Notes: a model not told the origin generated them from the letters alone. DNA of 61,280 bases, filler included, from Jimgerdemannia flammicorona (GCA_003990765.1; 2 parts of 2 records of this genome joined end to end with filler, not necessarily neighbours in it), one strand, 5' to 3'. Counted from the whole stretch's first letter, positions 6,301 through 53,034 are shown. Numbers and translations: made by a program.

Positions 6301-6397
6301 GACTTAATACCAACTTATAGGAATTCTTATAAAGATTTATAGCAAAGTGAGAAAGCATCTTAAAGCAGAATTGGATTATAAACCACTGCTTCTAAGT
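390..6397 (-). mobile_element. Heavily degenerate Ty3/gypsy retrotransposon (gag-PR-RT-RH-IN relics plus 3' extra ORF relic)
   Basis: The minus strand reads KTAF*THYRYFKFLIMSFGL (RT, ~2730-2790), FYWPHM (integrase zinc finger region, ~1500-1520) and LSTAFHPKTDSQTKRIN (integrase core, ~1070-1125). Domain order is RT-RH-IN. Many stops. The right boundary is approximate. Confidence 0.85.
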
Positions 6398-6975
6398 TGT
6401 AAAAGAGTTACTTATAAAGTACCATTATGTAATTCTAGATGGGTTTTCTGGAAGTTCTGGATATTCTTAAAGACTGTTTTCTTAAGATCAAGATCAATTT
6501 CATATAGAGTATATTCTCTATACTTATTGATTTCAAGATCAGATTAATATCTCAATTAAAGTTCTTTTTTGGACTAGTTCTGGATATTCAGGAGTTTCTA
6601 TATTTTAGGAAGTTTAAGAAACTAAAACCAGCTTAGTTGAATTGACATAATGCTGCAGACAATACCTAATTAGAAAATTTCATAATATGGTTAGGAGTGA
6701 GACCTAACAGAGTGTAGATTTACTTAAGAGTGGTTTGTGGGTTATTAAATAGATTTATTTACTATTCATAATATTGCTATACTAGGAGTATGTAGTATAT
6801 AAAGAGATATTGTGGGAAAGTGTTCAGAAGTTGTTATATATTCAGATCTGTTCAAGTCTGAGTTTCTGAGATCTGAGAGAGAGGGTATTTATACTAATAG
6901 AAGACTATCTAGACTATACTAATATAGATGTAGTACTTAGTGTCTTACTGAGTCAGAATATGGTCACATAATATA
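6398..6975 (-). mobile_element. LTR (family B), left part, interrupted by the PLE palindrome
   Basis: Starts TGTAA and aligns with the LTR at 41980-42720. Minus-strand TATAAATA at ~6886-6893. Continues at 16050. Confidence 0.7.
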
Positions 6976-7468
6976 TATATATATATATATTTATTATAAA
7001 ATGAGTAGATAATAGAGGAATAGTTTAGAGTGAGATATGATACTATTATGGCGGATATGAAAGTCAGCAGTAAGAGGTCAAAACAGAGGAAGCAGTAATC
7101 TTATGTGAATTTTCATGACGGAACAAAAGTAAGCAGAATAAAGTGTTTTCTGAAGTAAGGTGCAATAGATCTGCAACCTGTCCTCAGTACCGCAATACGT
7201 GGTAGTCTTTATTCATTTTGAGAAACAAAGTTTGGGTAAACAAAGATATGGATCTAACCCCAGAATTCCGGAATTGGATAGGTGCATAAGTACCCAGACC
7301 TTGCCTCAATCCAAACAATGGTCTGAATCGGGCTTCATTAATCTACATATGTGACGGGCCATTAAAAAACCCGATATAGTAATGATCAGGAAAAAGGTTC
7401 CGGTCACATGATCTAATGTTACACATACAGTAAACAATACTAAAAACGGAACTAGACCAATGACACAT

Positions 7469-7488
7469 TTTTTTTTTTTTTTTATAGT
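7469..7488 (-). mobile_element. Extremely 5'-truncated LINE insertion (poly-A plus 5 nt)
   Basis: T15-ATAGT is flanked by a 17-bp duplication CTAGACCAATGACACAT (7452-7468 and 7489-7505). It matches the LINE 3' end GACTATA(A)n at 23527-23545 and 42787-42813. It is absent from the other pLTR copies. Confidence 0.75.
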
Positions 7489-7765
7489 CTAGACCAATGA
7501 CACATCATGTGTTGTCACATGATTGTCACTTATAGGTTTAAAAACCTAAAAATTGTCGGCACCCAAAGGCGCAGGTGTCAGGCCTAGAGCCTCGCAACTG
7601 GAGTGGAGTAGAGTCTTGGCACCAGAGCAAGTGAAGCGAGCAGAGGTAGACAGGTGTCATAGAGTGTAGATACGCAGGCATCAGGCCTAGAGTCTCGTGC
7701 CGGAGGTTGTCCAGCGATTTTTCACGTTTTTAAACATTGCATGGCATATATGAGCCATGCAGCCT

Positions 7766-9771
7766 TCAAGGAGGACTTAGAGCGAAGCTGGTATTTGAGA
7801 CGGCATTAAGAATGGTAAAACCATTCTTCCGGGCAATGATAGATTGCTGGGCAGTTGCAGGGAAACCAAAACGAAACAAAGCGGTACATAGAGTCTTGTG
7901 GGCTGTTGATATAGCCATCGGGCCATATCATACTAGATGACAAGTAATGGGAGAGGAAAAGCAGAGTGGGGAATAGGGGGGTGGGAAATAAGGGGAGGGG
8001 TAAGAAGTGAAGTTCGGACCTCAAGCCAATCAACCAAACTCAACTGAGCAGTTACAACATCAACAGGGTATCCTTTCCTGTAAACCAGGAACTCAGCTAG
8101 GAGCCGACACTCATCAAGCCAATCATGGCGAGATGAGCAGAGTAACGATAGGTGGTGGGCCTCATTCACAATGCATAGACGGAGCATTTTTCTAGGATGA
8201 TTACTCAACTAGTCAACAAACTGCGTACTACACATAAACTTAACAAAGCGGCCTGTGCAGAATGGTGCGACTCGGATTTTCAGGTCCAGATAATGGCATG
8301 GTCCAGCGGATAAGACTTCCCATTCAATACGATGATATGGGGGATATATGGCACCAAAGATTGCGGCCAAGTCCATAATCACAGGCGTAAAGACAATAAG
8401 ATCATCAATATACTGGCAGAACTTAAGCCCGGCTTTGATGGCTCGGCTTAGCAGATAGTCGGGCACTTGCAAGGCATGCAACTCATGAGCAAAACCAATG
8501 AGGTTGGCAAGATCCGGGGCACAATTTGTCCCCATAGCAACACCAGACACAGAGCAGAAGGAACCGATGGCGGATGTGAACATCATATGGGTCATGACAA
8601 TGCGGACAAGGCCGAGAATGGCTTCAAGCGATAAAGAGCCAGGGGGGAAGGCCACTGTTGATAAGTAGGTAAGGCAGTCGATGCACTCATCTAATGTAAT
8701 TCTGGTGTAGAAGGCAGCGAAATCCCCAGTAGCAACATAGTTACAATCTGACATGTCTAGGTAATCCGGTTGAACCAGCTGTAGCAGTTCAAGCATATCA
8801 TGTAGAGGTGAATAACGTGAATAACCCACATTATAGTGCAGATGGGCCAACCACAGGCAGAGAAAGTGAGATAGGAAATGTGAAATCTCAGTTGTGGGAG
8901 AGTTAAAAGCACCGATGATAGGACACCATGCCATGTGAGCCCCTTTGTGTACCTTGGGCAAAGCATGAAACACAGGCATCTTGCAATCGCTAGGCTCCAT
9001 GAGGTGTTCTCAAATCGGTATACAATTCTTGTCGCTAATGCAGAACTTGAGTAGACCCAACAGGTCTAACCTCACTGATTCCTTAACGTCATCAATCATA
9101 GAGGGATCATTCATGTATGCAGGATCATGAAGGAGAGACAGAAGACCATCGAGATAAAGAGCATGCAGAATTACAGCGAACCCCAGATTTTTGTCAGTAA
9201 GATAAACTGTAAAGTTGTCATGAGTATGGACACCTTCAAGAAGGTGTTGGAACTTCTTCGGTACAAGCGCACTGGACATATTCGTCATGGGTCAAATAGC
9301 TTGATTCAAAGTGGTACTCATATGGAGTATAATTTGCATATTTTCCATATAGTGTGGCAGTCGCCATTTAGATGGCACCCAGGCGGAGATCTCCAGGACA
9401 TCGTCAGGATTACCCATGGAGGTCCAGAAGGTGGCAAGGTCGAGACGCCATTGGAATGACAACAATGAAATCAGGTCAATGGTGCTGTTCATCGATGCCA
9501 ACCCAGGGAGAACAAACTTAGGACCAAAGTTCAGCATATATGTGAGCTTGGGGGTAAGCCAAGGTGGAGGTATATCTGTAACAAAGCCCTCCTCAGTAAA
9601 CATCTGAAACTGAGGGACAAAAAACTGACTTAAGTGAGAACCGGAAAGAGAAGACACAAAGGCAAAATCTTCAATTGGTGTCGAGGCCACTACCCTACAT
9701 GGAATGGAGACATTGGGGCCAAACCACGCTGCTGGGAAGTCATATAAGACATCCGGGCTGGGGACCTCTAG
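7766..9771 (-). pseudogene. PLE ORF2, reverse transcriptase (left copy; in-frame stops, one frameshift)
   Basis: ORF pieces 9292-9690, 9010-9288, 8209-9000 and 7933-8208 share one frame, separated by single stops. Confidence 0.85.
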
Positions 9772-10928
9772 TTTTTTGAAGCTAGAGGGCAGATGTCGCC
9801 GGTATTATGCCAGACAACATGATGTTTGGCGGTAGTACACTTGTTGCACTGTGGCACAAATGCCCTGGTAGTGCTCTTAGATGAGCAGCTTGAAGTCGAC
9901 GAGCGGCTGGTCCCAGTAGAAGCAGAAGAAATGGATGGGGAAGGCGAAGCCTTATGTACTCACTTGATCCCTTTTATAGAATCCACTGTCTCGGCAGGGG
10001 CTAGGGGGCAAGGACCCTGGTGGGCCTTTGCAGGTACACCAAGGCATCCAGAACAACTATGGCAGTTCGGCACGGCAGAGGCTGAAGTCACATCCACCAT
10101 CTTGGCCTTTCCCGTGACCCCCACAGGTGCAGCAGTAGAGGGTGGGGGGGTGGGGACACTCTTTTTCGGCTGGGCAGAACTGGCAGCAGCAGAAGCAAAC
10201 ATGCATTTAGCACCTGGAGTAACGATCTCAGGGTGCTTTCCAAGCTCCTCAACTATGGCCTTGCAGGTGGCAGCAGAAATCCCATCTTGCAGAGAGGAGG
10301 ATACAGGGACAGTCAGGCGGACTGTGGTGGCGGCGGCTTTGGCAGCAGTGGCAGCAGCAAGACAGCAAGATTGATGCACAACAACATCAAAACCATGGAG
10401 CAGAAACAAGTTTGTCTTGGCCCTGTCAGCAGCAGTGAGGGAGGCAATATTCTTGCTAACTCCTTGAGTAATATCAATGGATATCCCAAAGAAGTTATGA
10501 GCATCAGAAGACCCACCCATGGCCTTGTTGATTTTAGCATGCTGGTCCTTAGCGTGCTGGGTGGCGGCATCTTGATCAGAGACGGCAGCCTCGATCACGG
10601 CAGTGGTACGGTGCTTAGCTTCTGCCGAAGCAGTAGTAAGGGCGGCGTCATGCTGTTCCTCTGGGAGGAGGGCGATCGTAGCAGTGACCTTCTTGGAAGG
10701 AGTAAACTTCCAATCAGCAACTTGAGCTCTCAAAAAAGTAGCCCAGTGCTCACGCATAGCAGCAACCTCAAGAGTATGAAGTACTCTGGTGCAAGTAGCA
10801 TGGAAGCTAGCAGGGACCTTGGCAAGCAAAGCAGTCAAGAAGATGGCCAGGTCGTCGAAGTTCACCAAATCGGTGAAAGAAGCTTTGGGGACGGCAGTAT
10901 TGCCATCTACATTCATGTTATCTATCAT
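9768..10928 (-). pseudogene. PLE ORF1 (~386 aa; Ala-rich helical region, two CCHC-like knuckles)
   Basis: ATG at 10928, one internal TGA at 9960-9962 (CGA in the other arm). Ends ...CPLASKN-TAG. Confidence 0.75.
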
Positions 10929-12153
10929 GTTGTATATTATAAAACGAGTAGATAATAGAGGAATAGTTTAGAGTGAGATGTGATACTGTTACGACAGATA
11001 TGAAAGTCAGCGGTAAGAGGTCAAAACAGAGGAAGTAGTAATCTTATGTGAATTTTCATAATGGAACAAAAGCAAGTGGAATAAAGTGTTTTCCGAAGTA
11101 AGGTACAATAGATCTGCAACCCACCCTCAGCACCGCAATACGCAGTGGTCTTTATTCATTTTGAGAAACAAAGTTTGAGTAAACAAAGACACAGATCTAA
11201 CCCCAGAATTCCAGAATCGGATAGGTGCATAAGTACCCAGACCTTACCCTGATCCAAACAATGGTCTGAATCGGGCTTCATCGATCTATACACATGATAG
11301 ACCATTAAAAAACCCGATATAGTAACAATCGGGAAAAAGGTTCCGGTCATGTGATCTAATGTTACACATACAGTAAACAATGCTAAAAACAGAACTAGAC
11401 CAATGACACATCACATGTTGTCACGTAATTGTCACTTATAGGTTTAAAAACCTAAAAATCATTGGCACCCGAAGGCGCAGGTGTCAGGCCTAGAGCCTTG
11501 CCACCAGAGCAGAGTAGAGCCTCAGCACCGGAGCAAGCAAAGTGAGCAGAGGTAGACAGGCATCACAGAGTGTAGGTACGTAGGTGTCAGGCCTAGAGCC
11601 TCACGCCAGAGGTTGTCCAGCGATTTTTAGGTTTTTAAACCTATAAGTGACAATTACATGACAACATGTAATGTATCATTGGTCTAGTTCCGTTTTTGGC
11701 ATTGTTTACTGTATGTGTAACATTAGATCATGTGACCAGAACCTTTTTCCCAATCATTACTATATCGGGTTTTTTAATGGCCTGTCATATATGTAGATCG
11801 ATGAAGCCCAATTCAGACCATTGTTTGGATCGGGGCAAGGTCTGGGTACTTATGCACCTATCCGATTCCGGAATTCTGGGGTTAGATCCATGTCTTTGTT
11901 TACTCAAACTTTATTTCTCAAAATGAATAAAGACCACCGCGTATTGCGGTGCTGAGGGTGGGTTGCAGATCTATTGCACCTTGCTTTGGAAAACACTTTA
12001 TTCCGCTTGCTTTTGTTCTGTCGTGAAAATTCACATAAGATTACTGCTTCCTCTGTTTTGACCTCTTACTGCCCACTTTCATATCCACCATAACAGTATT
12101 ACATCTTGCTCTAAACTATTCCTCTATTATCTACTCGTTTTATAATATACAAC

Positions 12154-13314
12154 ATGATAGATAACATGAATGTAGATGGCGATGCTGCTGTCCCCAAAGC
12201 TTCTTTCACCGATTTGGTAAACTTCGATAACCTGGCCATCTTCTTGACTACTTTGCTTGCTGAGGTCCCTGCTAGCTTCCGTACTGCTTGCACCAGAGTG
12301 CTTCATACTCTCAAGGTTACCACTATGCATGAGTACCAAGCTACTTTTTTGAGAGCTCAAGTTGCCGATTAGAAGTTTACTCCTTCCAAGAAGGTTGCTG
12401 CTGCAATCGCCCTCCTTCCAGAGGAACAGCGTGACACCACCCTTACTACTGCTTCAGCAGAAGCTAAGCACCACACCACTGCCACAATTGAGGCTGCCAT
12501 CTCCGATCAAGATGCCGCTGCCCAGCATGCTAAGGACCAGCATGCTAAAATTGACAAGGCTATGGGTGGGTCTTCCAATGCCCATAACTTCTTTGGGATA
12601 TCCATTGATATCACTTAAGGGGTTGGCAAGAATACTGCCTCCCTTGCTGCTGCTGACAGGGCCAAGACAAACTTGTTTCTGCTCTATGGTTTTGACATTG
12701 TCATGCGTCAATCTTGCCATCTTACTGCTACTGCCGCTGCCAAAGCCACCGCCGCCGCAGTCTGCCCAACTGTCCCTGCATCCTCCTCCCTACAAGATGG
12801 GATTTCTGCTGCCACCCGCAAGGCCGTAGTCAAGGAGCTTGGAAAGCACCCCGAGATCGTTACTCCGGGTACCAACCACATGTTTGCTTCTGCTGCTGCC
12901 GGTTCCGCCCAGCTGAAAAAGAGTGTCCCCACCCCCCCACTCTCTACCGCCACACCTGTGGGGGCCATGGGAAAGGCCAAGGTGGTGGATGTGACTTTGG
13001 CCTCTGCCACGCCGAACTGCCGTAGTTGTTCTGGATGCCTTAGTGTGCCTGTGAAGGCCCACCAGGGTCCTTGCCCCCTAGCCCCTGCCGAGACAGTGGA
13101 TTCTGTAAAAGGGGTCAAGCGAGCATGTAAGGCTTTGCCTTCCCCATCTATTTCTTCTGCATCTACTGGGACCAGCTGCTCATCGACTTCAAGCTGCTCA
13201 TCTAAGAGCACCGCCAGGGCATTTGTGCTGTAGTGCAACAAGTGTACTGCCACCAAATGGCATGTTGTCTGGCATAATGCTAGCAACATCTGCCCTCTAG
13301 CTTCAAAAAACTAG
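12154..13314 (+). pseudogene. PLE ORF1 (right copy)
   Basis: MIDNMNVDG... homologous to 9768-10928, with stops at 12370, ~12616 and 13231. Confidence 0.75.
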
Positions 13315-15316
13315 AGGTCCCCAGCCTGGAATCTTATATGACTTTCCAGCAGTGTGGTTTGGCCCTGATGTCCCCATTCCATGTGAGGTAGCAGCCTCGA
13401 CACCAATTGAGAATTTTGCCTTTGTGTCTTCTTTTCCCAGTTCTCGCTTAAGTCAGTTTTTCGTCCCTCAGTTTCAGATGTTTACTGAGGAGGACTTTGT
13501 TACAGATATACCTCCGCCTTGGCTTACCCCCGAGCTCACGTATATGCTGAACTTTGGCCCTAAGTTTGTTCTCCCTGGGTCAGCATCGATGAATAGCACT
13601 ATTGACCTGATTTCATTGTTGTCGTTCCAACAGTATCTTGACCTTGCTACCTTCTGGACCTCCATGGGTAATCCTGACGATGTCCCAGAGATCTCCGCCT
13701 AGGTGCCATCTAAATGGCAACCACTGCACTGTATGGAAAATATGCAAATTATGCTCCATATGAGTGCCGCTTTGAATCAAGCTGTCTGACCCATGATGAA
13801 TGTGTCTGGCGTACTTGTACTGAAGAAGTTCTGATGCCTTCTTAAAGGTGTCCATACTCATGATGACTTTACAGTCTGTCTTACTGACAAAAATCTAGGG
13901 TTCACTGTAATTCCGCGTGCTCTTTATCTCGATGGTCTTCGGTCTCTCCTTCACGATCCTGTATACATGAATGATCCCTCTACAATTGATGACATTAAGG
14001 AATCAGTGAGGTTAGACCTGTTGGGTCTACTCAAGTTCTGCATTGGCGACAAGAATTGTATGCTGATTTGGGAACACCTCATGGAGCCTAGCAATTGCAA
14101 GATGCCTGTGTTTCATGCTTTGCCCAAGGTACACAAAGGAGCTCGCGTGGTATGGTATCCTATCGTTGGTGCTTTTAACTCTCCCATGACTGAGATTTCA
14201 CATTTCCTATCTCGCTTTCTCCACCTGTGGTCAGTCCATCTGCACCATAATGTGGATTATTCGTGTTATTCACCTCTACGTGATATGCTTGAACTGCTAC
14301 AGCTAGTTCGATCAGATTACCTAGACATGTCAGATTGTAACTACATCGCTACTGGGGATTTTGCCACCTTCTACACCAGGATTACATTAGATGAGTGTAT
14401 CAACTGCCTTACCTACTTATTAACAGTGGCCTTCCCCCCTGGCTCTTTGTTACTTGAAGCCGTTCTCGGCCTTGTCTGCATTGTCATAACCTGTATGACA
14501 TTCACATCTGCTATTGGTTCCTTCTGCTCTGTATCTGGTGTTGCTATGGGGACAAATTATACCCCGGATCTTGCCAACCTCATTGGTTTCGCTCATGAGT
14601 TGCATGCCTTGCATGTGCCCGACCATCTGCTAAACCGAGCCGTTGAAGCCGGACTTAAGTTCTACTGGTATATTGATGATCTTATTGTCTTTACACCTGC
14701 AATTATGGACTTGGCTGCAATCTTTGGTGCTATATATCTCCTGCATCATTGTATTGAATGGGAAGTCTTGTCCGCCAGACTGTGCCATTATTCGGACCTG
14801 GAAATCCGAGTCATACCATTCCGCATAGGCTGCTTTGCTAAGTTCCCGCATAGTACGCAGTTTGTCGACTAGTTGAGTAATCATCCTAGGAAGGTGCTCC
14901 ATCTATGCATTGTAAATGAGGCCTGCCACCTATCGTTACTCTGCTCATCTCGCCGTGATTGGCTTGATGAGTGTCGGCTCCTAGCTGAGTTCCTGGTTTA
15001 CAGGAAAGAATACCCTATTGATGTTGTAACTGCTCAGTTGAGTTTGGTTGATTGGCTTGAGGTCCGAACTTCACTTCTCACCCCTCCCCTTATTTCCCAC
15101 CCCCCTATTCCCCACTCCACTTTTCCTCCCCCATTACTTGTTGTCCAGTACAACATGGCCTGATGGCTACATCAACAGCCCAACAAGACTCTATGTACCG
15201 CTTTGTTTCATTTTGGTTTCCCTGTGACTGTCTGGCGACCTATCATTGCCCAGAAGAACGGTTTTACCGTTCTTAATGCTGTCTCAAATACCAGCTTTGC
15301 TCTAAGTCCTCCTTGA
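13311..15316 (+). pseudogene. PLE ORF2 reverse transcriptase (right copy)
   Basis: YIDDL RT and SNHP thumb. Ends PIIAQKNGFTVLNAV...PP-TGA with no endonuclease domain. Confidence 0.85.
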
Positions 15317-16049
15317 AGGCCGCATGACTCGTACATGCCATGTGATGTTTAAAAACATGAAAAATCGCCAGACAACCTCCGGCGTGAGACTCTAGGCCTG
15401 ATGCCTGCATACCTATGCTCCGTGATGCCTGTCTACCTCCGCTCGCTTCGCTCGCTCTGGTACCGAGGCTCTACTCTGCTCCGGTCATGAGGCTCTAGGC
15501 CTGATGCCTGCACCTTCGGGTACTGATGATTTTTAGGTTTTTAAACCTATAAGTGACAATCACATGACAACATGTGATGTATCATTGGTCTAGTTCCGTT
15601 TTTAGCATTGTTTACTGTATGTGTAACATTAGATCACGTGACCAGAACCTTTTTCCCAATTGTTACTATATCAGGTTTTTTAATGGCCTGTCATGTGTGT
15701 AGATCGATGAAGCCCAATTCAGACCATTGTTTGGATCAGGGCAAGGTCTGAGTACTTATGCACCTATCCGATTCCAGAATTCTGGGGTTAGATCTATGTC
15801 TTTGTTTACCCAAACTTTGTTTCTCAAAATAAATAAAGACCACCACGTATTGCGGTGCTGAGGGCGGGTTGCAGATCTATTGCACCTTGCTTTGGAAAAC
15901 ACTTTATTCCACTTGCTTTTGTTCCGTTGTGAAAATTTACATAAGATTACTGCTTCCTCTGTTTTGACCTCTTACCACCGACTTTCATATCTGCCATAAC
16001 AGTATCACATCTCACTCTAAACTATTCCTCTATTATCTACTCGTTTTAT

Positions 16050-16515
16050 AATACCTAATTAGAAAATTTCATAATATGGTTAGGAGTGAGACCTAACAGA
16101 GTGTAGATTTACTTAAGAGTGGTTTGTGGGTTATTAAATAGATTTATTTACTATTCATAATATTGCTATACTAGGAGTAGTATATAAAGAGATATTGTAG
16201 AAAAGTGTTCAGAAGTTGTTATATATTCAGATCTGTTCAAGTCTGAGTTTCTGAGATCTGAGAGAGAGGGTATTTATACTAATAGAAGGCTATCTAGACT
16301 ATACTAATATAGATGTAGTACTTAGTGTCTAACTGAGTCAGAATATGGTCACATAATATAAGTGTGAACTAATATATCAAGAGATTGTCTAACTACTGAG
16401 TCAGTATGCAGTCATATCATATAAGGCTAATCTAACTATACTAATGACTGCTAAGCTATTTATAGTATTAGATAGTCTTTGATGATATCACTATCAATGA
16501 TATTATCTCTGATAA
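16050..16515 (-). mobile_element. LTR (family B), right part, including the duplicated target segment 16050-16360
   Basis: 16050-16360 is nearly identical to 6661-6975. 16361-16510 aligns with ~42561-42720. Confidence 0.75.
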
Positions 16516-17552
16516 AATAGTTATCTAGAAAGAGTGATTCTTAGATTACTTCTCTCTGTTTACTTAGGTAATAATATATTGAGACCAAATTACTATTCTA
16601 TAAGATAGCATCATCTGTTTCATATGCTAGATAAGATGTTGGTAGACAGAGAAGAGGTACATTATCTTTACTTTCATCAGATTTACTATCTGCATATCTT
16701 CTATAAGTAATGGTGCTATAAGTTACTGGGTTATAGTAAGCTGGTAGCTATTCTTTATATGTATCACTTATACTTGGGTGATAGAGTTGTCAGTTCAATC
16801 TCAAGAGTTGTCTAGAGGTATAGATTATATTCTCCAGTTTTCTCATTATAGTTGAAGTAATTGGATATGAATACAGGTTGATACTTATATCAGTGGTCAT
16901 TATCTCAATAGGTCTCATAGATAGTTATAAACTATTATAAGTTTATTGACAAAGTTGATAGTGTGATCAGAGCTGATAGAGATCCTTAGCTGAAGGTTAT
17001 GTTAGTATTAGAGAGATCATTATCTTCTACTTTATCATTATCAAACTGGATTATATCATAGACATTCTTTATAGTATATCCAACTTAGGATATTTGCAGA
17101 ATGTGGTCATTAGGATATAGGAAGATTCTGTCTGTAATTTGGATATACTCAATATACTTGTAGTTGAGTTCTTATATTATATCATTGTTTTGGCCATAGG
17201 ACAGAGTGGCAATTATTTCAGTAGTAGTAACTCAGTAGAGAATAAAGGTACTGTACTTTTAAAAAAGTTCTCAGTACTTGCAGGTGATGAGTTTCTAGTG
17301 TTGAAACATCTGGGTAATATCTGTATTATAGTGATATTTAACTATATCTTCTAAGAGGTGGCTGATCTAATAGTAGCTTGAGATTTATCTGATTTGATAT
17401 ACTTTACTAAGCATGTTTAGGGCATTCCATTGGACTTCCATGAAGTAGAGAGGTGCTAGGCTATGGATATTCATGAGGGGTAGGAGAGATATAGCTTAGT
17501 TAATAATTATATTCAAATATCAGTACAGATGCAGTTGTAGAACTTGATGGTC
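16516..17552 (-). mobile_element. Fragment of gypsy 3' extra-ORF region (paralog of 391-770)
   Basis: ~17176-17552 aligns with 391-770. Degenerate frame MNIHSLAPLYFMEVQWNAL... Confidence 0.65.
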
Positions 17553-17672
17553 ATGGTTATATATATGTTTGAGAGTTATAGTTGTTTGTTTGGTTTGTTA
17601 TAGTTCTCTATTTTGATATGTCTAGATACTTGGTATATATATATTTGGTCCTGATTGATAAGATTCTATTTG

Positions 17673-20600
17673 CGCATCTCTTTCCAGTACCATTCAGGTT
17701 ACACAACCTTTGGAAGGTACTTTCGACATCGTTTTCGGCAAAAAGAGACTAACAACATGGCAACCGACAGGCAATCTGAGGTGCGTACTGGGCAGGGCGG
17801 CCCAAGTGCTTTCGGCTGGCAGTAGGTGGGGAGGGGGCCAGGCCTGGGGGGAGGTATGAGGGGCCTGCTGGCAGGTGGATGTGGAAGGGGTGGAGGAGGT
17901 GGTGGAGGATCAGGATCTGGGAGAGCAAGCTTCGTAGAGATGGTGAAGGGGAGACAGCAGGTGTCAGGGCTGGAGGGCTGGCTGAGGAAGGGCAAGGAGA
18001 CCGAGAAGGCGATAGAGCCAGGGGGTGCGGCCCTTGGAAGGGGGGGCAGTGGGGCTGCGGGAGTAGTGGCTGGGGGGGTGTGACTGCTGATGGTGTTGGG
18101 ACTGTTAATCTGGAAAAAAATCCAGATGTGATGGCTGATGGCGAGGCTGAGCAGCTAAGGCTTAGAAGACAAGGGGACTTGGCAGATAGTGTAATGGGTC
18201 TGGCGGTGGCCCCATTACTCAAGAAATCGATTTCGGCATTCGCGGTCACACTATGCTTCCAGGGCCTGGCGGTGATGGCAAAAATGGTGCTGGGGCTCAT
18301 CGCTAAGCAGGTGGCAGGTGTAGCATCTGTGAAGTTTTTGAAGGGACTGGAAGGAGTGGAGGTGGGTTTTGAGGAGGCGGCACTGCTGGAGGAGGTACTG
18401 AAGGTTGGATTGGTGGTTGGGGAGGTATGTATTCTGATGGCGCGGTGCCTGAAGTGGGACTCCAGGGTGGTCCAACTGCTGGTGAAGGGAGTGCCGACAG
18501 TGACAGCAATAGAGACAAGGAAGAGAGTTGGGGATTTCATGGCGGAATATGGTGAGGTGATAGATATCAGGTTCAGGGTCTGGGAAGGGACCTCGCTCAG
18601 GACTGGTGACGTGGATGTGAGGATTTGGCTGGCTGGGAAGGAAGCCACTGGGAAGGCAAGGGATTGGCCTTCAGCGATGGTCTGGGGAGCAATCCTATGT
18701 AAGGTGACAAGGGTGAAGGAGAGTAAGGAGGAGGAGGAGGATTTACTGGAAGCACTCGAAATGCTGGGGGGTGCTGTGGAGAGGTGAGCGAAGGCTTGGG
18801 AGGCTTTTGAAGAGGCGACACACTTGGAGGTGGTGGATGGAAAGTGGATTCGAGTGACCAAGGAGCAGTGGGAAAGGGCTCAGGGGCGTAAGAGGCAGAA
18901 GGAGTTGCTGGCCAAGCTGGATAGCGGACCACTGGGGGAGGTGAGCAAGGTGAAGGGCACAGGGGGAGCTGGAGCGAGTGTCTGGGCTGGCAAGGGGGAG
19001 GGGAAGGACAAGAAGGAGGTGGGGGAGGATAAGAAGAAGGCTGGGAAGGACCCGTATGCGGATAGTACACTGGAGGTGTGGGAGGAGGACTGGGTGGGCT
19101 CCCCTACCCCTACCCCTCTCATCAGGCATGGTCTGGCTTCCCAGAATAGGGTGGTAGAAGATGTGTCAATGCGAGGGGCCCAGAGGGTGCAATTCGGAGT
19201 TCCAGAGGTGGCATATGGGGGACAGGTGGAGGCGGATGGCGAGGAGGAACTGGTGGATGTCCCGGAAGTATGGGATGAGTCTACAAGTGCTGGAGCTGAC
19301 ACCACAATGTTGGATGGAGGGAGGCCGGCAACTCTGGGGGGGAAAGAGGTGGGGAACTTGCTTTAGATGTGCCAGATGATGAATAACCTGGTGGCGGAAG
19401 AGTTGGGGGAAGTGGACTTGCGAGTGATGAGTGATGAGCATTAGGCAGGAATACTGCAGAGGGATGGCATGATGAAGGCATTGAAGGTGGAAATTCTTGC
19501 AGTGTACCTGGAGGAGGAAGGATATGAGGTGGATAAGGAGAGGGAGGAGGAGATGGCGGTTGTTGCTGGAGAAAGGGCTGAATACTGCTGGAACAAGTGA
19601 CATAGACTATAGCTCTGGCAGAAAGCATGTATCGAATACTGAGAGGAGTTTGAGGAGAAGGCCGATGGTGAGATGAATGAACTGCTGGCTGGATTGGAGG
19701 CTCAGAGGGCTGAAGAGGAGGAGGTGGCTATGGAACATAATTTGGACAGGGCACAGGAGGAGATGAGCATGGAGCAGTAGAGGCAGATTGACGACATCAC
19801 ATATATCATCAATATAAACAGTACAACCAACATTTTCGCTTTGAATGTAAATGGGTTACGGGGCGCTTCTTGACGTAGGAACATTTTTACTTGGATGAAG
19901 GGATTGGAGGCCGATCTCTTCCTCTTGCAGGATGTCCGGTGTGAAGATGACTCTGATAGGTTAGAATGGACAAAGGAATGGGGAGGTGCAGCAATTTGGA
20001 AGGGCAAGGTTGGGATTTTGGTTAGGAAAGGCAGAGGGGAGATACAGAATGTGCAGTACTGGGGGGAGAGACTGGTCTGGGGAGAGTGGATTTGGGCAGG
20101 CTGGGAGCCAGTTACAGTTGGTTCCTGCTATTGCCCTGCAGTACGGAGTGAGAGGGTCGATTGGGTGAAAGGCTTACAGGAGAGTGGATTACTTGCAGAG
20201 GCCGGGGTGGATGTGCTAGGGGGAGATTTCAATATGGTTAGGGATATACTGCTGGATAGATCAGATGGAGGACAAGGTGCTGAGAGCAGGAGTGGAGGGC
20301 TGGTGGCATGGGAGGAAGTAGAGAGGCTAAGTACGCTATTGGATGCTGGAAGGGAGTGCTGGGGGAGTAGGAGGGTCTATACACATTGGGCAGGGGGTCT
20401 AGGGACTAGAATCGATTGGATTTTGACAGTCTGCTGCTGGGGACTAGATGTTTGGAAATCATTGGAGGTGGAATGGTGTCCATGGTCGGATCACTGGGGG
20501 CTTTTGGGACAGGGGTGCTTTGGGGGAAGTGGGGATGGGCCTGGACATTGGCGCCTCAATTCCTCTTTGTTAGATGACAAGACCTGGTGGGATGAGTGGG

Positions 20601-23545
20601 CTAAAGACATTCAGCTGAGGGTGGAGAACTGGAGGCAGGAAGGGGCCGCAGTTGGGACTCAGTGGATAAGGATGAAGGAAATGGCCAGGATTTACTGGAA
20701 GGAGGCTGGCAAGGAGGCAGGGAAGCAGCGAAAACAAAGAGTGCGCTGGGCCTCTGCTAGATTGATGAGGCTCCTGGAGGAGTGGGCAAGGCTGATGATA
20801 TTGGAGGGAGAAGAAGATTGGAGATTAATGAGGGCGAAAATGGAGGTTGGGGAACTTCAACAGGTGCTGCAGGAGGAGGAAGAGGCAAGGGTACAGATCT
20901 TGGCAGCACGGCTTCATTGGCAGGATCTGGAGGAAGGAGAGAGGCCTTCCAAGCTTCTTACAAGGGCCCTTAGGGCGAGGCGGGTCCAGCAACAGTGGGA
21001 AGGGGTATTGGACTCTGATGGTGTACTGGTGCATGGTGTACAGGACATTCTTGGATCGCTGAAGGAGAGATGGAGTGGATTGTGGAGTGAGGAGGAAGGT
21101 GGGGCAGATGCCACTACAATTGAATGAACATTGGAGGATTGGTACCCACCACAAGTCAAAGGGCTAGGGGACCTGATGATGCCTGTACAGGAGGATGAGA
21201 TCCACCAGGTTCTTGCCGCGACAACGTCCGGTATGGCACCTGGGGAGGATGGGCTGCCCTGGGACTTTTGGAAGCAAATGGTTGAAGTCCCAAGGGTGAT
21301 GGGAGAGATGACAGCGTTGTGTGACCTTATTCTACAGACAGGAAGATGGGTGGGGGAGCAGGACCTTGGGCTGGTGACGCTGCTCTACAAAAACAAAGGA
21401 AGGTGGGAGGATTGGAAGAACTGGCAGCCGATAATGCTGCTAGCTATGGACAGAAAGTTGGTAACTAAGGTAGTGGTGGCAAGACTACAGAAGGTGGCTC
21501 AGTAAGTCGTGGGTTTTGAGCAGAGGGGATTTGTGGGTGGTCGGCTCATCAGGGATGGCACTGCCTGGGTGTATAGCATCATCGAAGGGGCAAGGGCATG
21601 TGGACTGGATGGGCATCTAGTTTTCTTGGACCAGGAGAAGGCTTACGACCAGGTGCGGAGAGTCTGGCTGGAGAAAGTTTTGGATAGAATGGGGGTACTG
21701 CATCAATTCCAGTCAACAATGGTCAGCCTACTGGAAGGGAGTAGGGCTGCACTCATGTGTAATGGACATAGAGGGGTAGCATTCCTCTTGGGAAGGGGAG
21801 TGCCCCAGGGGGATCCATTGTCCCCCATTTTGTATGCTCTTTCCCTGGAACCACTTATGGACCGGATTAGGCGGAGGATAGTGGGGCTCTCTGTCTTTGG
21901 CATAGGATGGAAGGTTGGGGCCTTTGCTGATGATATGGTGGTGGGCTTGGGTTTGATTGCTGATGTTGAGGAGTTCAAGAGGACTGTGGAGTGGTATGAG
22001 GAGCATTCTGGAGCTAAGCTGAATTGGCATAAGTGTGAGATGATGGTGCTTGGTAATGGCCTGGTGGGAGGGGAGGTTATAGGAACAATTGTCCCTACCG
22101 GTGAAGTAGTGCAGTACTTAGGTATCTACTTGTCAGTCTATGGGTCAGTTCAGCCTAAGCTTTGGTGGGAGCAGAGGATTGGAATCTGGGAGGAGGCTCT
22201 GTGGAGTTGGGGGGGAAGACATTTTTCTCTGGCAGGGTGGGTCTCGATTTTGAATGTCTACTGGCTGCTAAAGTTGTGGTACCTGGCGTATCATCTGGAC
22301 TTCCCAGCCTAGATAGTGAAGAGATTGATGAAGTCGGCAAAGGGATAGATTTGGGCTGGCAGGCGGAGTCAGATTAGTTGGGAGACCTTGTCCCTACCAG
22401 TGACAAGAGGTGGTCTTGGGCTGGTTGACTTCCCAAAATAGTTACACTGCTTGAGAGCATGGTGGCTGAAGAGGGTGGTGGAGTTGAGAGGAGGTGGATG
22501 GGTTCCTCTGTTACAGAAGATATGGGAGAGGTGGGCATTGCCAAGGGGCTCAACTGGTGATCTCCTCTCCTTGGTTGGGCTTCAGAACACTGCCCAACTA
22601 TGATATAAAGGATTTTGTTGGGGAATTGCAGAAGGAGCGCACCGCATTGGCATTTGTTGGCAGGGGAATAAAGGTGAGGAGGATTGGGACCCAGTAATGT
22701 GGAGATGGGACCGTATACTGCTGGGTGGTGCTCCTTTAGTTGAGTTCGACATTGGTGATAGAATGGAATGCCAAAGGGGACCAGGCCAGGATCTGTGGCC
22801 TAGTGGTTGGCAAGGAGTTGGAATTGGTGAAGAGTGGAACTGGCATAGTATTTGGACCTGGTGCGCTACAGTGAGAGCATGGCTGCCACCAAAGTACTGG
22901 GTGGTCTGGTGGCGCATGCTGTGGAGGAATGTTATGCTCAATTTTCGCTCAGGGCACCTGGTTGTAGGGGGTTGCTTCGACTGTGAGGAGTGCCATAATG
23001 TAGGGCAGGAGGGGGGTTACGTACAGATGCCGGAACATTGGCTGGGAGAGTGTGAGGTGTTGGGGGATTTTTGGCAGACAATTGGAAATCACCTAGGGGT
23101 ACGGGGTAGGAGTGATGAAGTACAGGGGTGATGGGAGGACTTGAGGGTTAGATTGGTAGGGGGGATAGGGAAGGAGTGGCTTACTTTAGGTTGGGCTTTG
23201 GCAATTTGGGTGGGGTTGGCCAGTCATTGGCTATTTGTTTTTGAGGATGAGAGGAGGCAGAGCTTGGGGGACTGGCTGCTGTGATGGCATAGGCTTATGG
23301 AGGATACCTTAACAGGCTGGTGGCTGGGTTGGGGGATGCGGGGTGGTCGGAGGCACCGCTTGGTGGAGAAAATCTGTGGGCAAAGTGGGGGGAGAGTGGG
23401 GGTGGTTGGTGAAAGGGTGATTTTCATTCGTGAGGAAGTAGGGAGGGGCCCCCTGGTGGGGATTGGATAGTGGGTCAGAATGATGTATATTTATTCATAG
23501 ACTGGTAATAAAGACGGAGTCCAAGTGACTATAAAATAAAAAAAA
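17673..23545 (+). mobile_element. Full-length L1/Tx1-like non-LTR retrotransposon (~5.9 kb), decayed
   Basis: ORF1 from ATG 17757 to ~19780. ORF2 has APE motifs (LNVNGL, GGDFN, RIDWIL, SDH), RT motifs (APGEDGLP, FLDQEKAYD, GVPQGDPLSP, AFADD) and a C-terminal CEEC..H..C. Poly-A tail. 16-bp TSD GATAAGATTCTATTTG at 17657-17672 and 23546-23561. Confidence 0.95.
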
Positions 23546-25080: not shown

Positions 25081-26074
25081 TATTGAAATATCTTAGTTAT
25101 ATGATGAAAAAATAATTCAGTTCTAAGTATAATTATCAGAGATCTATAAATTCTAATATATATTTATAATAGTATATTACAAACTTGAATACATTTTACA
25201 GATATAAATATATATATTGTGGCATTGGTTATGTATAATGAACTTCGACTGCATGACTCAATGTGTGCTACTGGTGAAGTGCGCAATGTATAACTGAATG
25301 CATTCGCGATGATTACAGGTTGATGGTCACGTGACAGGTTGTTTGATTCATGTGGTAATAATAATAGTGGGAGATCGTTCGACGATGGTGGCTCAATTGT
25401 TTAGTGGATGAGGTCGTTTGATTGTTCAATGGCTCAATATCCAGTGGAAAAGGGCATTCCTGGCGGCGAACTTGAATTTATGCGGTGACGACGGGCTTGG
25501 CTTTAAGCGGTTTGTGGCGCAGTAGGTCGGGAATCGGAGAAGCGGAGGTTGACGGCTCGCTCGTCCGTCTAACTTGTTAACTTGAGAGTGGGTTTACTGG
25601 GGTCCTTGGCGGTTGTTCTTGCTAGCTGGTGGGTCTTGTACTGGTATCCTTGAGTTCCTTGGCTTTTCGGGGTCTTGAATCTCGAATGGCAGCAAATGGC
25701 GGTCTCGAATGGTGGCGGTTCTTGAATCCTTGGCTGGGTCACTTGGGTCTCGAATGGCAGTTGAATGGCGGTGGTTGGGTAACGTTTTCTTTCCGTGGCA
25801 AGAGAAAATTCTTTAACTCAAATCTCGAGTGATCGTTGCTCTAGTTATCTTGTTCTCAGAATTTATCTGGTCTCTTGGAGGCAGTGGTTTCTTTGTAAAC
25901 TAGAACTGGCTGAGGTTTATTCACTCTAAGAATATGGGTTATTTATACAAGTTTGCTAGCTATGGGGGGGGGACACGACTAAGGCTAAGGTATACTACGT
26001 TGTGGCGAACTTATGCTATTGGTTTGCACGATGCGAGGTGCAGGCTATTGTTTACTATGGATTGGGTTGTAGGG

Positions 26075-26395
26075 GATAGCAACGCTGGATTTGGATGAGC
26101 TGACAAAATGCTGAAAACGGTGGTACTGGGTAGCAATGCTGGATTCAGATGAGCTGACAAAATGCTGAAAACGGTGGTACTGGGTAGCAATGCTGGATTC
26201 AGATGAGCTGACAAAATGCTGAAAATGGTGGTACTGGGTAGCAATGCTGGATTCGGATGAGCTGACATGATAAGATGATTGTTGCCAGAAACAGTTGTGG
26301 AGGGTGGCAATACTGAATTCGGACCTGCTGACAAAATGCTGAAAATAGTAGTACTGGGTAGCAACACTGGAAACAGACTTGCTGACAAAAGCTGG
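26075..26395. repeat. 54-bp tandem repeat, ~5-6 units
   Basis: Unit GCTGGATTCAGATGAGCTGACAAAATGCTGAAAACGGTGGTACTGGGTAGCAAT. Confidence 0.9.
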
Positions 26396-27482: not shown

Positions 27483-30400
27483 TTTGGCTCAGATCATCTT
27501 GTCTTCTTTTGGGATGATCATCTAATGGGTCAGGTTGTCTATTTGATTATCACGCCATTATGTCGTCTGATCTTAGCAGTCACCAGTACTCCATTGTCAA
27601 TTGTGTACATCACATCTGCCCCTTGCAAAATTAGAGCCATCCACGGCAGTGAGGGTTACACAGAGTTGGGTGGTCTTAACTCCAGGGATGAGCAGAATGC
27701 TGGTGCATTTGTGAGGACTGGCCATCCTTGTCTAGGGCGAGGGCTCCCATAGTCATGGCTGGGGGTTCGAACCCATCGAAAATAGTATTACTTATAATCT
27801 GAGGCAATTTCTTAGTAACAATGTCTGTCACGTGGATGGGCTTGAGTCTGGTTCCAACATTGTTGGCTTTCTTGAGTTTCGAGTGAAATGTCTGTCATAT
27901 CTCCAGCGGAGACGACACAGACAGAGTGAACAGGATTGTTCAAATGTGTTTTGCTTCTCTTGAGTAGTAGAGTCTTATATGGTTGCGATGTATCTTGGTC
28001 TTGAGTATAACTCCATCCAAGGTCTTGAGTTGATAAGTGTGGTTCGAGAATACTTGGTGTATGAGATAGGGGCCTTCCCATTTTGGTTCAAGCTTGGCAC
28101 TCTAATTTCCTTCTATGATGGTACAGTACACCAGAACCTTTTGTCCAATGAGCAGGGGTTCGAGGTCAGCTTTGCAGTCATAGTACCTCTTTTGTCATTC
28201 TTGTGCCTTGGCGATAAATCCTTGTACTTGCTGGCGTATGTTGTGTAACCGGGTGATCTCTTCTGTGACTCGTTTTGACAGATCTAGCTGGACTGGTTCA
28301 GTAGGATCTTGTGCTTCTCAGCCATACACCAAATAGAAGGGGGTCTGTTGGGTAGCGGTTGCCTTAGAGGTACGGATGCTGAACAGAATTGCCGATAGAT
28401 AGATGTCCCAGTTTAGTTGATCTCCGGTTCTACTGAGACCTCGCTTGATGGTCTGGTTCATTCATTCAGTAAGTCCATTTACCTGTAGGTGGTAGACTGT
28501 TGTTGGTTGTAGCTTGATCTTGAAGTTGCTTGCAAAGGTCTTCATGGCTTGGTTGACAAATTCTCGACCTTGGTCTATAATGATTTCCTTGGGCACACTA
28601 TGGCGGCTGAAAATTTCATCATACAGGATCCCAATAATTGTCTGGGCATCGGCAGTCTCAATGGCAAAGGCTTCGGGCCATTTTGTCAGGTGGTCTTTGA
28701 TAGTGAGGATGTAGCATCTTCCTCGGCTGGTTACTGGTAGGGGTCTAATAATGTCTATTCCTAGTCTTTGAAAGGCTCCAGCTGGTGCTGCGATTGGTAT
28801 TAATGGTGCTCTGTCGGTAGGCTTTTGTCAGTATCTTTGGCAGGTATCACATTGTTGAATGTGCGTTGAAATTTGTTTTCTCATCTTGGGCCACCAGTAT
28901 CGCTTCTTGATTCTTGCAATTATGGTGCCAATTCCTCGGTGTGCATTTTGGTCATAATTTGTTGTCAGGATCTTCAATATTTCTTCTTCTCTTGGAACTC
29001 GGGTATACTGCTCTCCTTTTACTCTCCAAAGTTCACCATCGCCTTCTTGGAATTTCTTGAAATTCCTTTGGATAAACAACTTGTGGGCTGGTTGGATTTC
29101 TTTCTTGAAGCTTCTATGGTGCAGACTCCAGGTGAGGGCGAGGCGCAATTCTTGGTTCATTTGGGTGAGCGGGAAGCAGCCTTCTCTTGTAGGGGCTCCT
29201 TCCCTTCTTGTTGGTTTCACGGGATTCTTGACAGGGTATCGATATTGGAATTCTTAGCACCTTTCTTGTAGACAATAGTGAACTGATATTCTTGCAGAGA
29301 CATGATCCATCTAGTGAAGATTCCTGAGGGCTCTGGCTTGTTAAACAACCATTGTAGAGCTTGATGGTCAGTAATGAGGGCGAATCTCTTTCCCAAGAGA
29401 TAGTGTCGGAAGTGGTCTACAGCCCAAACTACTGCTAGGCATTCCAACTTAGTGGCTCCATAGTTCACTTGTGTTTCATTCATGGCCTTGCTAGCATATT
29501 CAATAACATGCTCTCTCTTCTGGTCATCTTGCTGAGACAGAATTAATCCAAGTCCTAAGGCTGAGGCATCAGTTGCCAGGATGAATGGTTTGCCAAAGTC
29601 TAGTCACACCAGGACAGGGGCTTTAGTAAGGGCCTTTTTGAGTAGGTCGAATGACTTTTGTTGTTCCTTTTTCCAGTAGAATGGTTGGTCCTTCTTGAAG
29701 ATATCTTGGAGAGATGCTGCCTTATCCAAAAACCTTGGGATAAATTGTCGATAGTAGGATGCCAGCATAAGGAAGGATAGGGTCTCCTTTGCTGAGGTCG
29801 GGGTTGAGTAGTTCTTGACTTTCTCCACCTTGCAGGGGTTGGCATGTATTCCTTGAGCTGAGACAACATATCCCAAATATTCAACTTGATGTTTTCTGAA
29901 GAAGCACTTCTTGGCATTGAGTCTGAGTTCTGAATTTCGAATGGTATTGAATACTTCACGGAGGTCTTGCAAATGCTGCTTGAATGTCTCAGAGTAGATG
30001 ATGACATCATCTATGTACACTAGTACATTTCTTCTAATGAGGTCCCAGTAGACATAGTTCATCATTCGTTGGAATGAGGCGGGTGCATTGCAGAGTCCAA
30101 AGGGCATTCATAGGTATTCATACTGTCCTCGTCTGGTGATGAAGGCTGTCTTGCAGATATCTTCTTTGGTAATGAGTATTACTTGGAATCCTTAGAACTG
30201 GTCAGTAGTGGTCATGTATTTGGCTTTTCCGAAGGCATTGATGAGATCATCAATTCTTGGCAGTGGATAGACATCTTCTGTGGTGACTTTGTTGAGTTTT
30301 CTGAAATCCACGACTAATCTCCATCCTCCTTTCTTTGGTACTATGATTGCTGGTGAGGCCCAGGGGCTTGATGATGGTCTGATGACTCCATTTCATAGCA

Positions 30401-30590: not shown

Positions 30591-30690
30591 NNNNNNNNNN
30601 NNNNNNNNNNNNNNNNNNNNNNNNNNNNNNNNNNTTAATTAATTAANNNNNNNNNNNNNNNNNNNNNNNNNNNNNNNNNNNNNNNNNNNN
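30591..30690. other. Assembly gap or artificial linker
   Basis: Ns flanking TTAATTAATTAA, which has stops in all six frames. Confidence 0.95.
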
Positions 30691-41365: not shown

Positions 41366-41979
41366 GCTAGAGCAGCGTTGTAAAGCGGCGTCCTACTGTT
41401 TCTTTGCTAATATTAGCTTCAATATATTACATTAACCTTTTTTTATCTTATATTCATATATTTAGAAGTAGTGGCTGACTTAAGGCTGCAGTTCAAATTT
41501 GTTTTGGAAGGTTAGTGCAAATTAACTGAAAAAAGTCCTTTTGATGATTAAAACTCAAAAATATGCACATTTTATGGAAATTCAGCAGGCCTCAGCTGTT
41601 CATTGCTTTTGTCACTCACTTAAAGATCTCTGACACTGCATCCCTATGGCTGCTCATATACAATGTGATGGTCTGAAGGTTACATAGAGTATTGATATCT
41701 CTGTTCCAGACTATTGTATAGTTTTTATAGCTGAGTATAGTATATAGAGTATTGCTGCCATCATGGATATATATCTTTATAATGAAAGCACATCTGTGAT
41801 GATCAGAACTCAGATATACTAATAAGTATAAGATGATAGAGATAGTTATATCACTATAGTATATATAATAGTCTATGTGAGATATCTGCTATCTTATCTC
41901 TTATATATCATTGATAAGAATAATATATTACCAAAGCCAACTACTGTGTACTTTTAATTATTATTATATAGGGTAGCAC

Positions 41980-52249: not shown

Positions 52250-52288
<39 letters not shown>
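51015..52288. mobile_element. Two diverged poly-A retroposon 3' ends in opposite orientation
   Basis: The reverse complement of 51058-51120 resembles ~52190-52253 (GCCTATATAGT.TAGG.TT.CTTCTAATAAAA). Poly-T at left, poly-A at right. Confidence 0.6.
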
Positions 52289-52290
<2 letters not shown>

Positions 52291-53034
52291 ATAATTTAAT
52301 ATATTATATAAATTAAAAAAAGTTCTTTATAACTTTAAAGTCAGAGTATTGCTATATTTATATATTAATATATATTGTGAAGAAATAGAAATTCAAAAAA
52401 GGAGATAAAAATGAAACATAGTCATGTGATCATATCTAAGCCACAATTCCTCGGATTTGGTGAGAATTTGTTTAAAAAAATTAATTACTATAAATATAAA
52501 AGAGAATAATAATAAAATCTCTCTGTAAGATTAATATCAAAAGGGGTTTCTGTTGATCTATGGATTTTTTTAAACTCATTGCTAGAAATAGAATTTTTAA
52601 TGATTATAGACGTGGAGCACTAGTCTAGCGAGTTTGACAGTCCCTCCCCAAGCCATATTGGGCGAAATGAATTGGACTGTTGGAAAAGTCACCCCTTCTC
52701 TCATACCATGGAAACCTCTCAAGGGCTCGGGGCCGACAACATATTCAATACACCCCAACGACAAGACCCTGCCAGTGTCGCCGGCCAGAAATGTGAGTTC
52801 AGCTTCACTAACATTCTTGCAACCTGGAGAACAAAACAAAACCGACGGCTCTCGTTACTCACCTTTCACAGTCGCGGCTTCTTTTAGCCCCCGGTTAGAA
52901 CCCATCTCCTTCTCATCAAACAATACTCTTTCGCCCTTGCCCCTACCACGCTCACCAACACCAACAATACTCCTTCCACCCCGCTCTCGCTCCCCTCCTT
53001 TTCCCCCTTCTCCCCTTCATCTCTGCCACCAACA

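Follow-up and report, generated by a model that had tools for sequence, protein, structure and literature searches.

Organization of the locus

We analyzed a stretch of 61,280 nucleotides from the fungus Jimgerdemannia flammicorona (GCA_003990765.1; two parts of two records joined end to end with filler, not necessarily neighbours in the genome), which is called the window here, and in particular a head-to-head pair of Penelope-like elements (PLEs) that lies in its first third. Comparison of the window with itself by blastn gives a 9.1-kb inverted repeat at 6992-16053, in which the reverse transcriptase (RT) genes point away from the centre. Positions 7489-11460 pair with 15593-11622 (3975 bp, 89.2% identity) and positions 6992-7468 pair with 16053-15577 (477 bp, 90.6% identity). 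The RT open reading frames (ORFs) are on opposite strands, at 8209-9009 on the minus strand in the left arm and at 13835-14872 on the plus strand in the right arm, and therefore the two copies stand 5'-to-5' and both outer ends are 3' ends of the element. Both outer ends read ...TTTTATAATA. A sequence-only reading of the window had described a palindrome of about 9 kb with a 5'-to-5' joint and element 3' ends at both host junctions; the self-comparison bears out the first point, and the strands of the RT genes together with the common end sequence bear out the second. The two full units are:

6992-10934, minus strand: left arm, full unit of 3943 bp including a 37-bp insertion, with its 3' end at 6992
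12148-16053, plus strand: right arm, full unit of 3906 bp, from TACAACATGA... through ...TTTTATAATA

The 37-bp insertion (7469-7505) is found only in the left outer pseudo-long terminal repeat (pseudo-LTR) and is made of a local duplication of ~17 nt and an A-run of ~16. The 61-kb window holds no third copy of the element. The PLE locus itself is a site inside a dispersed repeat, and the host genes are 37 kb away in window coordinates.

Coding capacity and identity of the element

Each unit has two reading frames. ORF1 begins at the first ATG of the unit and lies upstream of ORF2, in a different frame:

9960-10928, minus strand: left ORF1, gag-like and containing a Cys/His knuckle, open from the first ATG of the unit
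8020-9804, minus strand: left ORF2 (DKN motif, RT, thumb), one frame with 4 in-frame stops
12154-13233, plus strand: right ORF1 frame, with 3 transition-derived stops
13301-15307, plus strand: right ORF2 (DKN motif, RT motifs, thumb), a single frame free of frameshifts but holding 5 in-frame stops

Left ORF1 stops where the right arm has CGA, and this stop is probably not its natural end. No Pfam family is found in left ORF1 at E<=0.1. For ORF2, a profile was built from the RT ORF and 22 relatives (23 sequences, 602 positions) and compared with both arms, stops being read as X. It matches the right arm in a single frame at 13532-15307 (positions 7-587 of 602, 372 bits) and the left arm at 9549-8020, also without a frameshift (350 bits). 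ORF2 carries the motifs TDKNLG, PKVHK, AMGT and YIDD, and the consensus of the 23 aligned sequences reads TDKNLG ... PKxHK ... RPIV ... DVxSxYTN ... GxAMGT ... RYIDD. The D and K of the first motif are invariant (23/23), and N follows them in at least 90% of the sequences. Published work is cited here and below from excerpts of the papers; in these, the DK motif is diagnostic for PLEs and appears as DKG with the variants DKA, DKT and DK (PMC8557442), and it is written DKN in the fungal Coprina-1_Alen, which has two ORFs, an RT, a thumb and terminal repeats (PMC13159263).

When the 345-aa RT ORF was compared with the whole library by HMMER, 508 relatives were obtained at E<=1e-3, of which 17 remain at E<=1e-10 and one at E<=1e-30, and the best named relative is from the glomeromycete Racocetra fulgida (33% identity). 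The nearest protein Atlas clusters, DUF8422/HTH_animal/RVT_1 in nematodes, arthropods, chordates and rotifers, serve as a lead only. A search of solved structures with the 23-sequence profile returned generic RTs (Drt3a, group II intron, retron) and did not find TERT. Word-indexed protein searches gave 1 and 5 matches, none of them informatively named, and a single-protein scan of metagenome contigs (38 patterns matched) found no relative.

The nine read-through frames that were scanned, namely the three sense frames of each arm and the three antisense frames of the right arm, contain no endonuclease family, GIY-YIG or other, at E<=1, and GIY-YIG is absent from all 36 relatives scanned. Tandem TTAGGG/CCCTAA is found nowhere in the window, which has one lone CCCTAA at 13558. 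Judged by its motifs and organization, the element looks like an endonuclease-less PLE with a Coprina/Athena-like organization. The sequence-only reading had called it a PLE without endonuclease and had excluded telomeric repeats from the event; the DKN motif and the empty endonuclease scan agree with the one claim, and the absence of tandem telomeric repeats with the other.

Pseudo-LTRs and the central joint

Each arm is a partial tandem (a 1.13- to 1.18-mer), in which 526 or 706 nt of a preceding unit stand before the full unit. In both arms the upstream partial copy abuts the unit start, so that ...TTTTATAATA is followed directly by TACAACATGA... (TACAAC start). The parts that meet in the middle of the palindrome are:

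10935-11640, minus strand: left upstream partial copy (pseudo-LTR), last 706 nt of the unit, 90.9% identical to 16053-15347
11622-12147, plus strand: right upstream partial copy (pseudo-LTR), last ~526 nt of the unit, 94.3% identical to 15528-16053
11461-11619, no strand: asymmetric centre of the palindrome, ~151-159 nt, present in the left arm only, the loop part of the native pseudo-LTR hairpin

The right pseudo-LTR begins with 21 nt that make up one arm of a native inverted repeat, and this stretch overlaps the left arm at its end. The joint coincides with this 21-nt inverted repeat, whose arms lie ~706 and ~526 nt from the 3' end of every copy and which closes a long, imperfect hairpin of ~200 nt in the pseudo-LTR. 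The right arm's own hairpin (15340-15555), folded as RNA, reaches -69.9 kcal/mol (z = -3.58, with 0/200 shuffles as good), and the centre, folded as DNA, has a perfect 24-bp closing stem (z = -6.48).

A typical Penelope has its ORF between two pseudo-LTRs together with an adjoining inverted pseudo-LTR, with a 15-bp overlap between the inverted and the direct copy (PMC3846280). Palindromes of 18-38 bp are described at the 5' ends of pseudo-LTRs, and head-to-head is the commonest arrangement of PLEs (PMC3846280). Both marks of PLEs are present here, that is the partial-tandem pseudo-LTR (526 and 706 nt abutting the unit start) and the head-to-head inverted neighbour joined at a palindrome.

One possible option is that a head-to-head dimer had formed beforehand and was inserted whole, either from a read-through transcript over both arms or as DNA. 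Head-to-head PLEs occur often, transcription being possible from either side (PMC3846280), and a unit of this kind would have a 3' end at each extremity. Yet an RNA that is a perfect hairpin of 4.5 kb would be a poor template, the long target duplication described below would still need a separate explanation, and the window has no second copy of the dimer. We regard a pre-formed dimer as unlikely; if it were the true origin, the centre would say nothing about integration at this locus.

The host repeat and the target duplication

The element pair interrupts a host repeat, which we call LTR-B (a putative long terminal repeat, LTR), and is flanked by a direct repeat of part of it, which we call S:

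6392-6660, plus strand: LTR-B part A, upstream of S, starts with TGT..., aligns to the paralogue at 41978-42245
6661-6975, plus strand: S, left copy, 315 bp, single in the paralogue
6976-6991, no strand: filler (TA)7TT, 16 nt, at the left junction only, lacking in the right S copy as in the paralogue
16050-16360, plus strand: S, right copy, 311 bp, its first 4 nt (AATA) common to the element 3' end
16361-16520, plus strand: LTR-B part B, downstream of S, aligns to 42561-42721
41978-42730, plus strand: paralogous LTR-B copy with S once, used as a stand-in for the empty site

The two copies of S are 97.46% identical over 315 columns in blastn and differ by 3 transitions, 1 transversion and one 4-bp indel over 311 aligned bases. 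In the comparison with the paralogue, 6430-6959 matches 42015-42544 (83%) and 16050-16473 matches 42246-42672 (82%), and a three-way alignment shows that the paralogue carries S once. The sequence-only reading had already placed the direct repeat at these positions, with a few substitutions and a 4-bp indel, and had put the paralogue with a single segment at 41980-42720; the first is reproduced and the second holds with slightly wider limits.

At the right junction, AATA (16050-16053) belongs to the element end and to the target alike. At the left junction the target ends ...ATAATATA at 6975, and the 16 nt of (TA)7TT follow before the element. Since both junctions are element 3' ends and the copies of S are direct, attachment must have been at two points on opposite strands ~311 bp apart: one at the right border of S, on the top strand, and the other at its left border, on the bottom strand, with S copied twice. 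Two other origins of the palindrome were rejected. Flanks in inverted orientation would be expected of a hairpin-capped or fold-back palindrome, but S is repeated directly. Fold-back duplication, at the DNA level, of a single insertion already in place would involve re-entry on a template bearing the element and hence leave three copies, whereas the window has only two.

A further question is whether the locus could be an artefact, in which two loci, each with a PLE in an LTR-B copy, were joined by the assembler within the pseudo-LTR. Tandem and inverted structures of PLEs do cause assembly problems (PMC8557442). However, the arms differ by 10.6% and the copies of S by 1.3% and an indel, hence nothing was collapsed. 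A fold-back read would give identical arms and inverted flanks, neither of which is seen. The joint is on a native inverted repeat with an asymmetric loop, as in real PLE insertions (PMC3846280), and there is no N run or gap within the inverted repeat or within 14 kb of the locus, the sole N runs being at 30591-30690. An assembly artefact is thus, in our estimate, very unlikely.

Mutation pattern and age of the arms

Outside the centre, the arms align over 4431 positions with 472 differences (10.6%), made of 465 transitions and only 7 transversions; 37 of the 39 gap columns are the single insertion described above. Save for C-to-T changes, the arms are nearly identical. Among the four pseudo-LTR copies, 45 of the 53 polarisable singleton changes are C>T or G>A. 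Their tree is star-like, the 2:2 splits (9, 11 and 4) grouping them clearly neither by arm nor by position, and one transversion site is present in 526 columns. The base that follows the changed C in the arms is G at 139 sites, A at 106, C at 34 and T at 9, and at a further 176 sites it is a variable A/G, which corresponds to a CpG hit on both strands in different copies. Based on the ratio of one-copy to no-copy change, the loss of CpG is estimated at ~63% per copy. The stops follow the same pattern. ORF2 has 5 in the right arm and 4 in the left, 2 of them common to both, and ORF1 has 3 and 1; at each of the nine stop positions private to one arm, of which ORF2 has 5 and ORF1 has 4, transitions alone separate the stop from the sense codon of the other arm.

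The 465:7 spectrum, the C>T direction, the star and the kept frames together indicate that the arms were nearly identical and coding when they formed. The view of the arms as two old, independently diverged copies was rejected, since the 465:7 ratio, the star-like tree and the intact frames speak against it. We suggest that the arms formed nearly identical and then took a C-to-T hypermutation that killed both copies. Deamination of methylated CpG in a silenced inverted repeat would fit the mutations of the arms equally well. Classical repeat-induced point mutation (RIP) as the sole cause finds no support in the composite RIP indices of the arms, which are negative (-0.56 and -0.63); RIP signatures were not detected in Mucoromycotina, according to the excerpt of the paper cited (PMC8647823). 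An older pair of long interspersed nuclear elements (LINEs) in the window has 847 transitions vs 396 transversions, without a CpA preference; C-to-T hypermutation itself is limited to the young dimer. The ratio of observed to expected CpG (CpG o/e) is 0.91 over 52000-61280, where the host genes are, vs 0.0-0.5 in the repeats, so that the depletion of CpG is specific to repeats.

Other repeats of the window show an excess of CpA-biased transitions too. LTR-B and its paralogue differ by 85 transitions and 22 transversions, the next base being A in 43 cases, C in 15 and T in 6, and the repeat pair 393-786 / 17179-17566 has a transition to transversion count of 62:10, where A comes next in 35 cases, C in 10 and T in 4. 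The left part of LTR-B (6392-6975) has a CpG o/e of 0.00 and a composite RIP index of +0.32.

The hypermutation of the arms also accounts for the difference between the arms (10.6%) and the flanks (1.3%). S has a CpG o/e of 0.00, and its transversions (1 in 311) compare with 7 in 4431 in the arms, from which 0.5 would be expected in S by a Poisson estimate. As S has no CpG and the transversion rates are compatible, the flanking repeat and the arms can be of the same age.

Ages and similarities of this kind bear on a second explanation, in which two PLEs were inserted independently, facing each other, into near-identical LTR-B copies, followed by a deletion at the 21-nt repeat. One PLE would have entered at the right border of S and the other at the left border of S in a second LTR-B, for example the other LTR of the same retrotransposon. 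Consistent with this, the copies of S are 98.7% alike and only 82-83% similar to the paralogue, as LTRs of one element would be; LTR-B starts with TGT; and the 21-nt arms are imperfect direct repeats on the plus strand that could support a deletion. On the other hand, this course needs two hits by a rare element, with no other copy in 61 kb, in one repeat pair of ~750 bp. The hits would have to face inward, and the native hairpin would have to be the exact endpoint of the deletion in each pseudo-LTR. With 7 transversions in 4431 positions and a star of pseudo-LTRs, the arms fit one source at one time, and neither an internal region of an LTR element nor a target duplication of its own was found beside LTR-B. 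We consider two separate insertions improbable.

A possible integration mechanism

Based on the junctions, the joint and the mutation pattern, we think it rather likely that one integration event put a head-to-head dimer of an endonuclease-less PLE into an interior, AT-rich site of a dispersed repeat, and that it would have done so independently of any endonuclease in trans. The RT of the element would extend chromosomal 3'-OH ends that are paired to the RNA 3' end ...UUUUAUAAUA through short, AT-rich microhomology. Each cDNA would run through the whole unit into the terminally redundant upstream pseudo-LTR, and the antiparallel copies would then be joined by strand transfer or self-priming at the native 21-nt inverted repeat. 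Such joining would leave pseudo-LTRs of 706 vs 526 nt, with ~155 nt of asymmetric centre. Between the attachment points, ~311 bp of host sequence would be copied twice, either because two distant primers were used or because the product re-entered 311 bp upstream. Later, a heavy C-to-T load on the dimer, with CpG >> CpA, would have killed both copies.

Two routes can be drawn for the central steps. In route (a), two 3'-OH ends prime on RNA 3' ends and the cDNAs anneal at the hairpin repeat. This route would need two lesions and fits a break whose two ends were both lengthened by repair synthesis. In route (b), there is one primer; the cDNA would reach the far arm of the hairpin, snap back or switch strand and copy itself to the 3' end, and would finally use the AATA microhomology to re-enter the target 311 bp upstream. 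Route (b) would explain, without an extra assumption, the identical starting arms, the 706/526 nt asymmetry and the presence of 16 nt at one junction only. Both routes yield the same product, and the data fit either. The sequence-only reading had proposed that the RT primed from two 3' ends. This part agrees with the geometry and with the microhomologies at the junctions; another route, single priming with snap-back and AATA re-entry, gives the same product. The anatomy given by that reading stands; it had missed the pseudo-LTR partial tandems, the native inverted repeat at the joint and the divergence of 10.6% vs 1.3%.

Several points weigh against a single integration by an endonuclease-less PLE. 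We deal with a single locus, known from assembled sequence alone. Target duplications of PLEs are 8, 9 or 10 bp, or none (PMC3846280), and a non-exhaustive literature search, in excerpts, found no PLE target duplication of hundreds of bases. The assignment of the element is affected by weak Pfam RVT_1 matches (17-22 bits vs a threshold of 29.6). Canonical hammerheads are described in all PLEs except Naiads and most Chlamys (PMC8557442), and no hammerhead ribozyme is among the two weak, unrelated Rfam matches (whalefall-1 and Ocean-VII) obtained at E<=10 over 9801 bases (6600-16400). There is a single CTGATGA box, at 15523 in the right arm only, and with ~63% of the CpGs mutated per copy a hammerhead motif could have been destroyed. 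An endonuclease may have been supplied in trans; a LINE with an AP-endonuclease domain is 1.6 kb away. The two ORF2 stops common to both arms may mean that the source was already defective, or they may be parallel hits. Finally, C-to-T changes outside CpG are, by our estimate, about threefold rarer per G/C in S (3 in ~187) than in the arms (~170 in ~3500), and S could be younger or less exposed than the arms, which is a mild tension with a common age.

A broader hypothesis goes beyond this locus, and we put it forward only tentatively, as something that may well turn out otherwise. The RT of an endonuclease-less PLE may colonise chromosome interiors without telomeric repeats by using two 3' ends ~310 nt apart, such as the ends of a break lengthened by repair; the head-to-head form would arise by strand transfer at the pseudo-LTR hairpin, and the dimer would then be subject to a repeat-targeted C-to-T hypermutation in Mucoromycotina. 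If this is true, the locus is a natural footprint of an intermediate with two 3' ends. The locus has readable junctions, a joint and a stand-in empty site together, and the mechanism is constrained by three features, namely attachment through a microhomology of 4 nt or (TA)n, strand transfer at the pseudo-LTR hairpin, and attachment points ~311 nt apart. Were the pattern found throughout the family, this would show that DNA lesions at internal sites can be used by such elements, and a concrete model for how their inverted repeats arise would be at hand. A single decayed locus is a lead in this direction and not a demonstration.

Other features of the window

The rest of the window holds further repeats and, at its end, host genes. 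A LINE of 5.9 kb with AP endonuclease and RVT_1 domains is present in two inverted copies, 17692-23545 on the plus strand and 42795-48650 on the minus strand, which are 79% alike; the poly-T of the second copy (its minus-strand tail) lies ~60 bp past the end of the LTR-B paralogue. A Ty3/gypsy-type pol remnant at 28465-30107 on the minus strand has RVT_1, RNase H, and integrase zinc-binding and core domains in several stop-bounded ORFs. The region of this remnant contains the N runs (30591-30634 and 30647-30690, 44 bases each and 12 bases apart), which may be masked sequence or gaps, and is adjoined by a short tandem array at 26066-26394 with units of ~55 bp that are 78-96% alike.

Between the repeats, at 37032-37172 on the plus strand, there is a full-length gene for the U11 spliceosomal small nuclear RNA (65.4 bits against a gathering score of 39, E = 1.5e-9), which fits a fungus that keeps the minor spliceosome. 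The host genes at 53612-59352 encode a Brr6-like domain, a dsRNA-binding motif and a WDR55/JIP5-like WD40 protein. For the gene at 58564-59352, a public protein of Jimgerdemannia flammicorona shows 100% identity over 81% of the query, and one of an Endogone species shows 90%; the window thus comes from an Endogonales fungus (Mucoromycotina), with which the U11 gene agrees.

Comparison with known elements

In LINE-1 twin priming, a second chromosomal 3'-OH primes during target-primed reverse transcription and an inverted segment results. As that primer pairs within the same RNA molecule, a 3' end is found at one host junction only, whereas both host junctions here are full 3' ends. Endonuclease-independent LINE-1 insertion uses pre-existing DNA lesions, usually without target duplications.

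Among the canonical PLEs, Pen2a_Av of Adineta vaga resembles the present locus in having a partial-tandem pseudo-LTR that holds the ORF start and a second copy head-to-head (PMC3846280, PMC8557442). The inverted junction of canonical PLEs likewise overlaps at a palindrome, by 15 bp there vs 21 nt here. An AT-rich or (TA)n target and extra bases at one end only are also shared: a PLE tail may sit at one end, and microsatellites including (TA)n are favoured targets (PMC8557442). These extra bases are an element-derived 'tail' of 30-40 bp in the canonical PLEs, whereas here they are the (TA)7TT run. The canonical inverted copy is usually a truncated pseudo-LTR, while both copies here are full length. 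Target duplications are 8-10 bp or none there vs ~311 bp here, and the canonical elements have a GIY-YIG endonuclease, which is not detectable here.

With Coprina and Athena the element has in common the lack of an endonuclease, the DKN before the RT and thumb, a terminal repeated sequence and a fungal host (PMC8557442, PMC13159263), and two ORFs are found in Athena and Coprina-1_Alen as here. PLE families without an endonuclease must find other 3'-OH ends and are as a rule confined to the ends of chromosomes (PMC8557442). Coprina and Athena sit there between telomeric repeats and carry reverse-complement telomeric repeats and a hammerhead at the 3' end. Unlike them, the element studied here lies inside a dispersed repeat, has no tandem telomeric repeat in or beside it, no detected hammerhead, and a 3' end that shows no reverse-complement telomeric repeats.

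Partial tandems with an adjoining inverted copy are described for PLEs, and the way in which their tandem and inverted structures build up is still undefined (PMC8557442). Because partial tandems, inverted copies and palindromic joints have already been described in the excerpts cited, the head-to-head form is a known habit of PLEs and is not new. What is new or unusual at this locus is the duplication of ~311 bp, the presence of two full-length copies, and the interior, telomere-free site for an element without an endonuclease.

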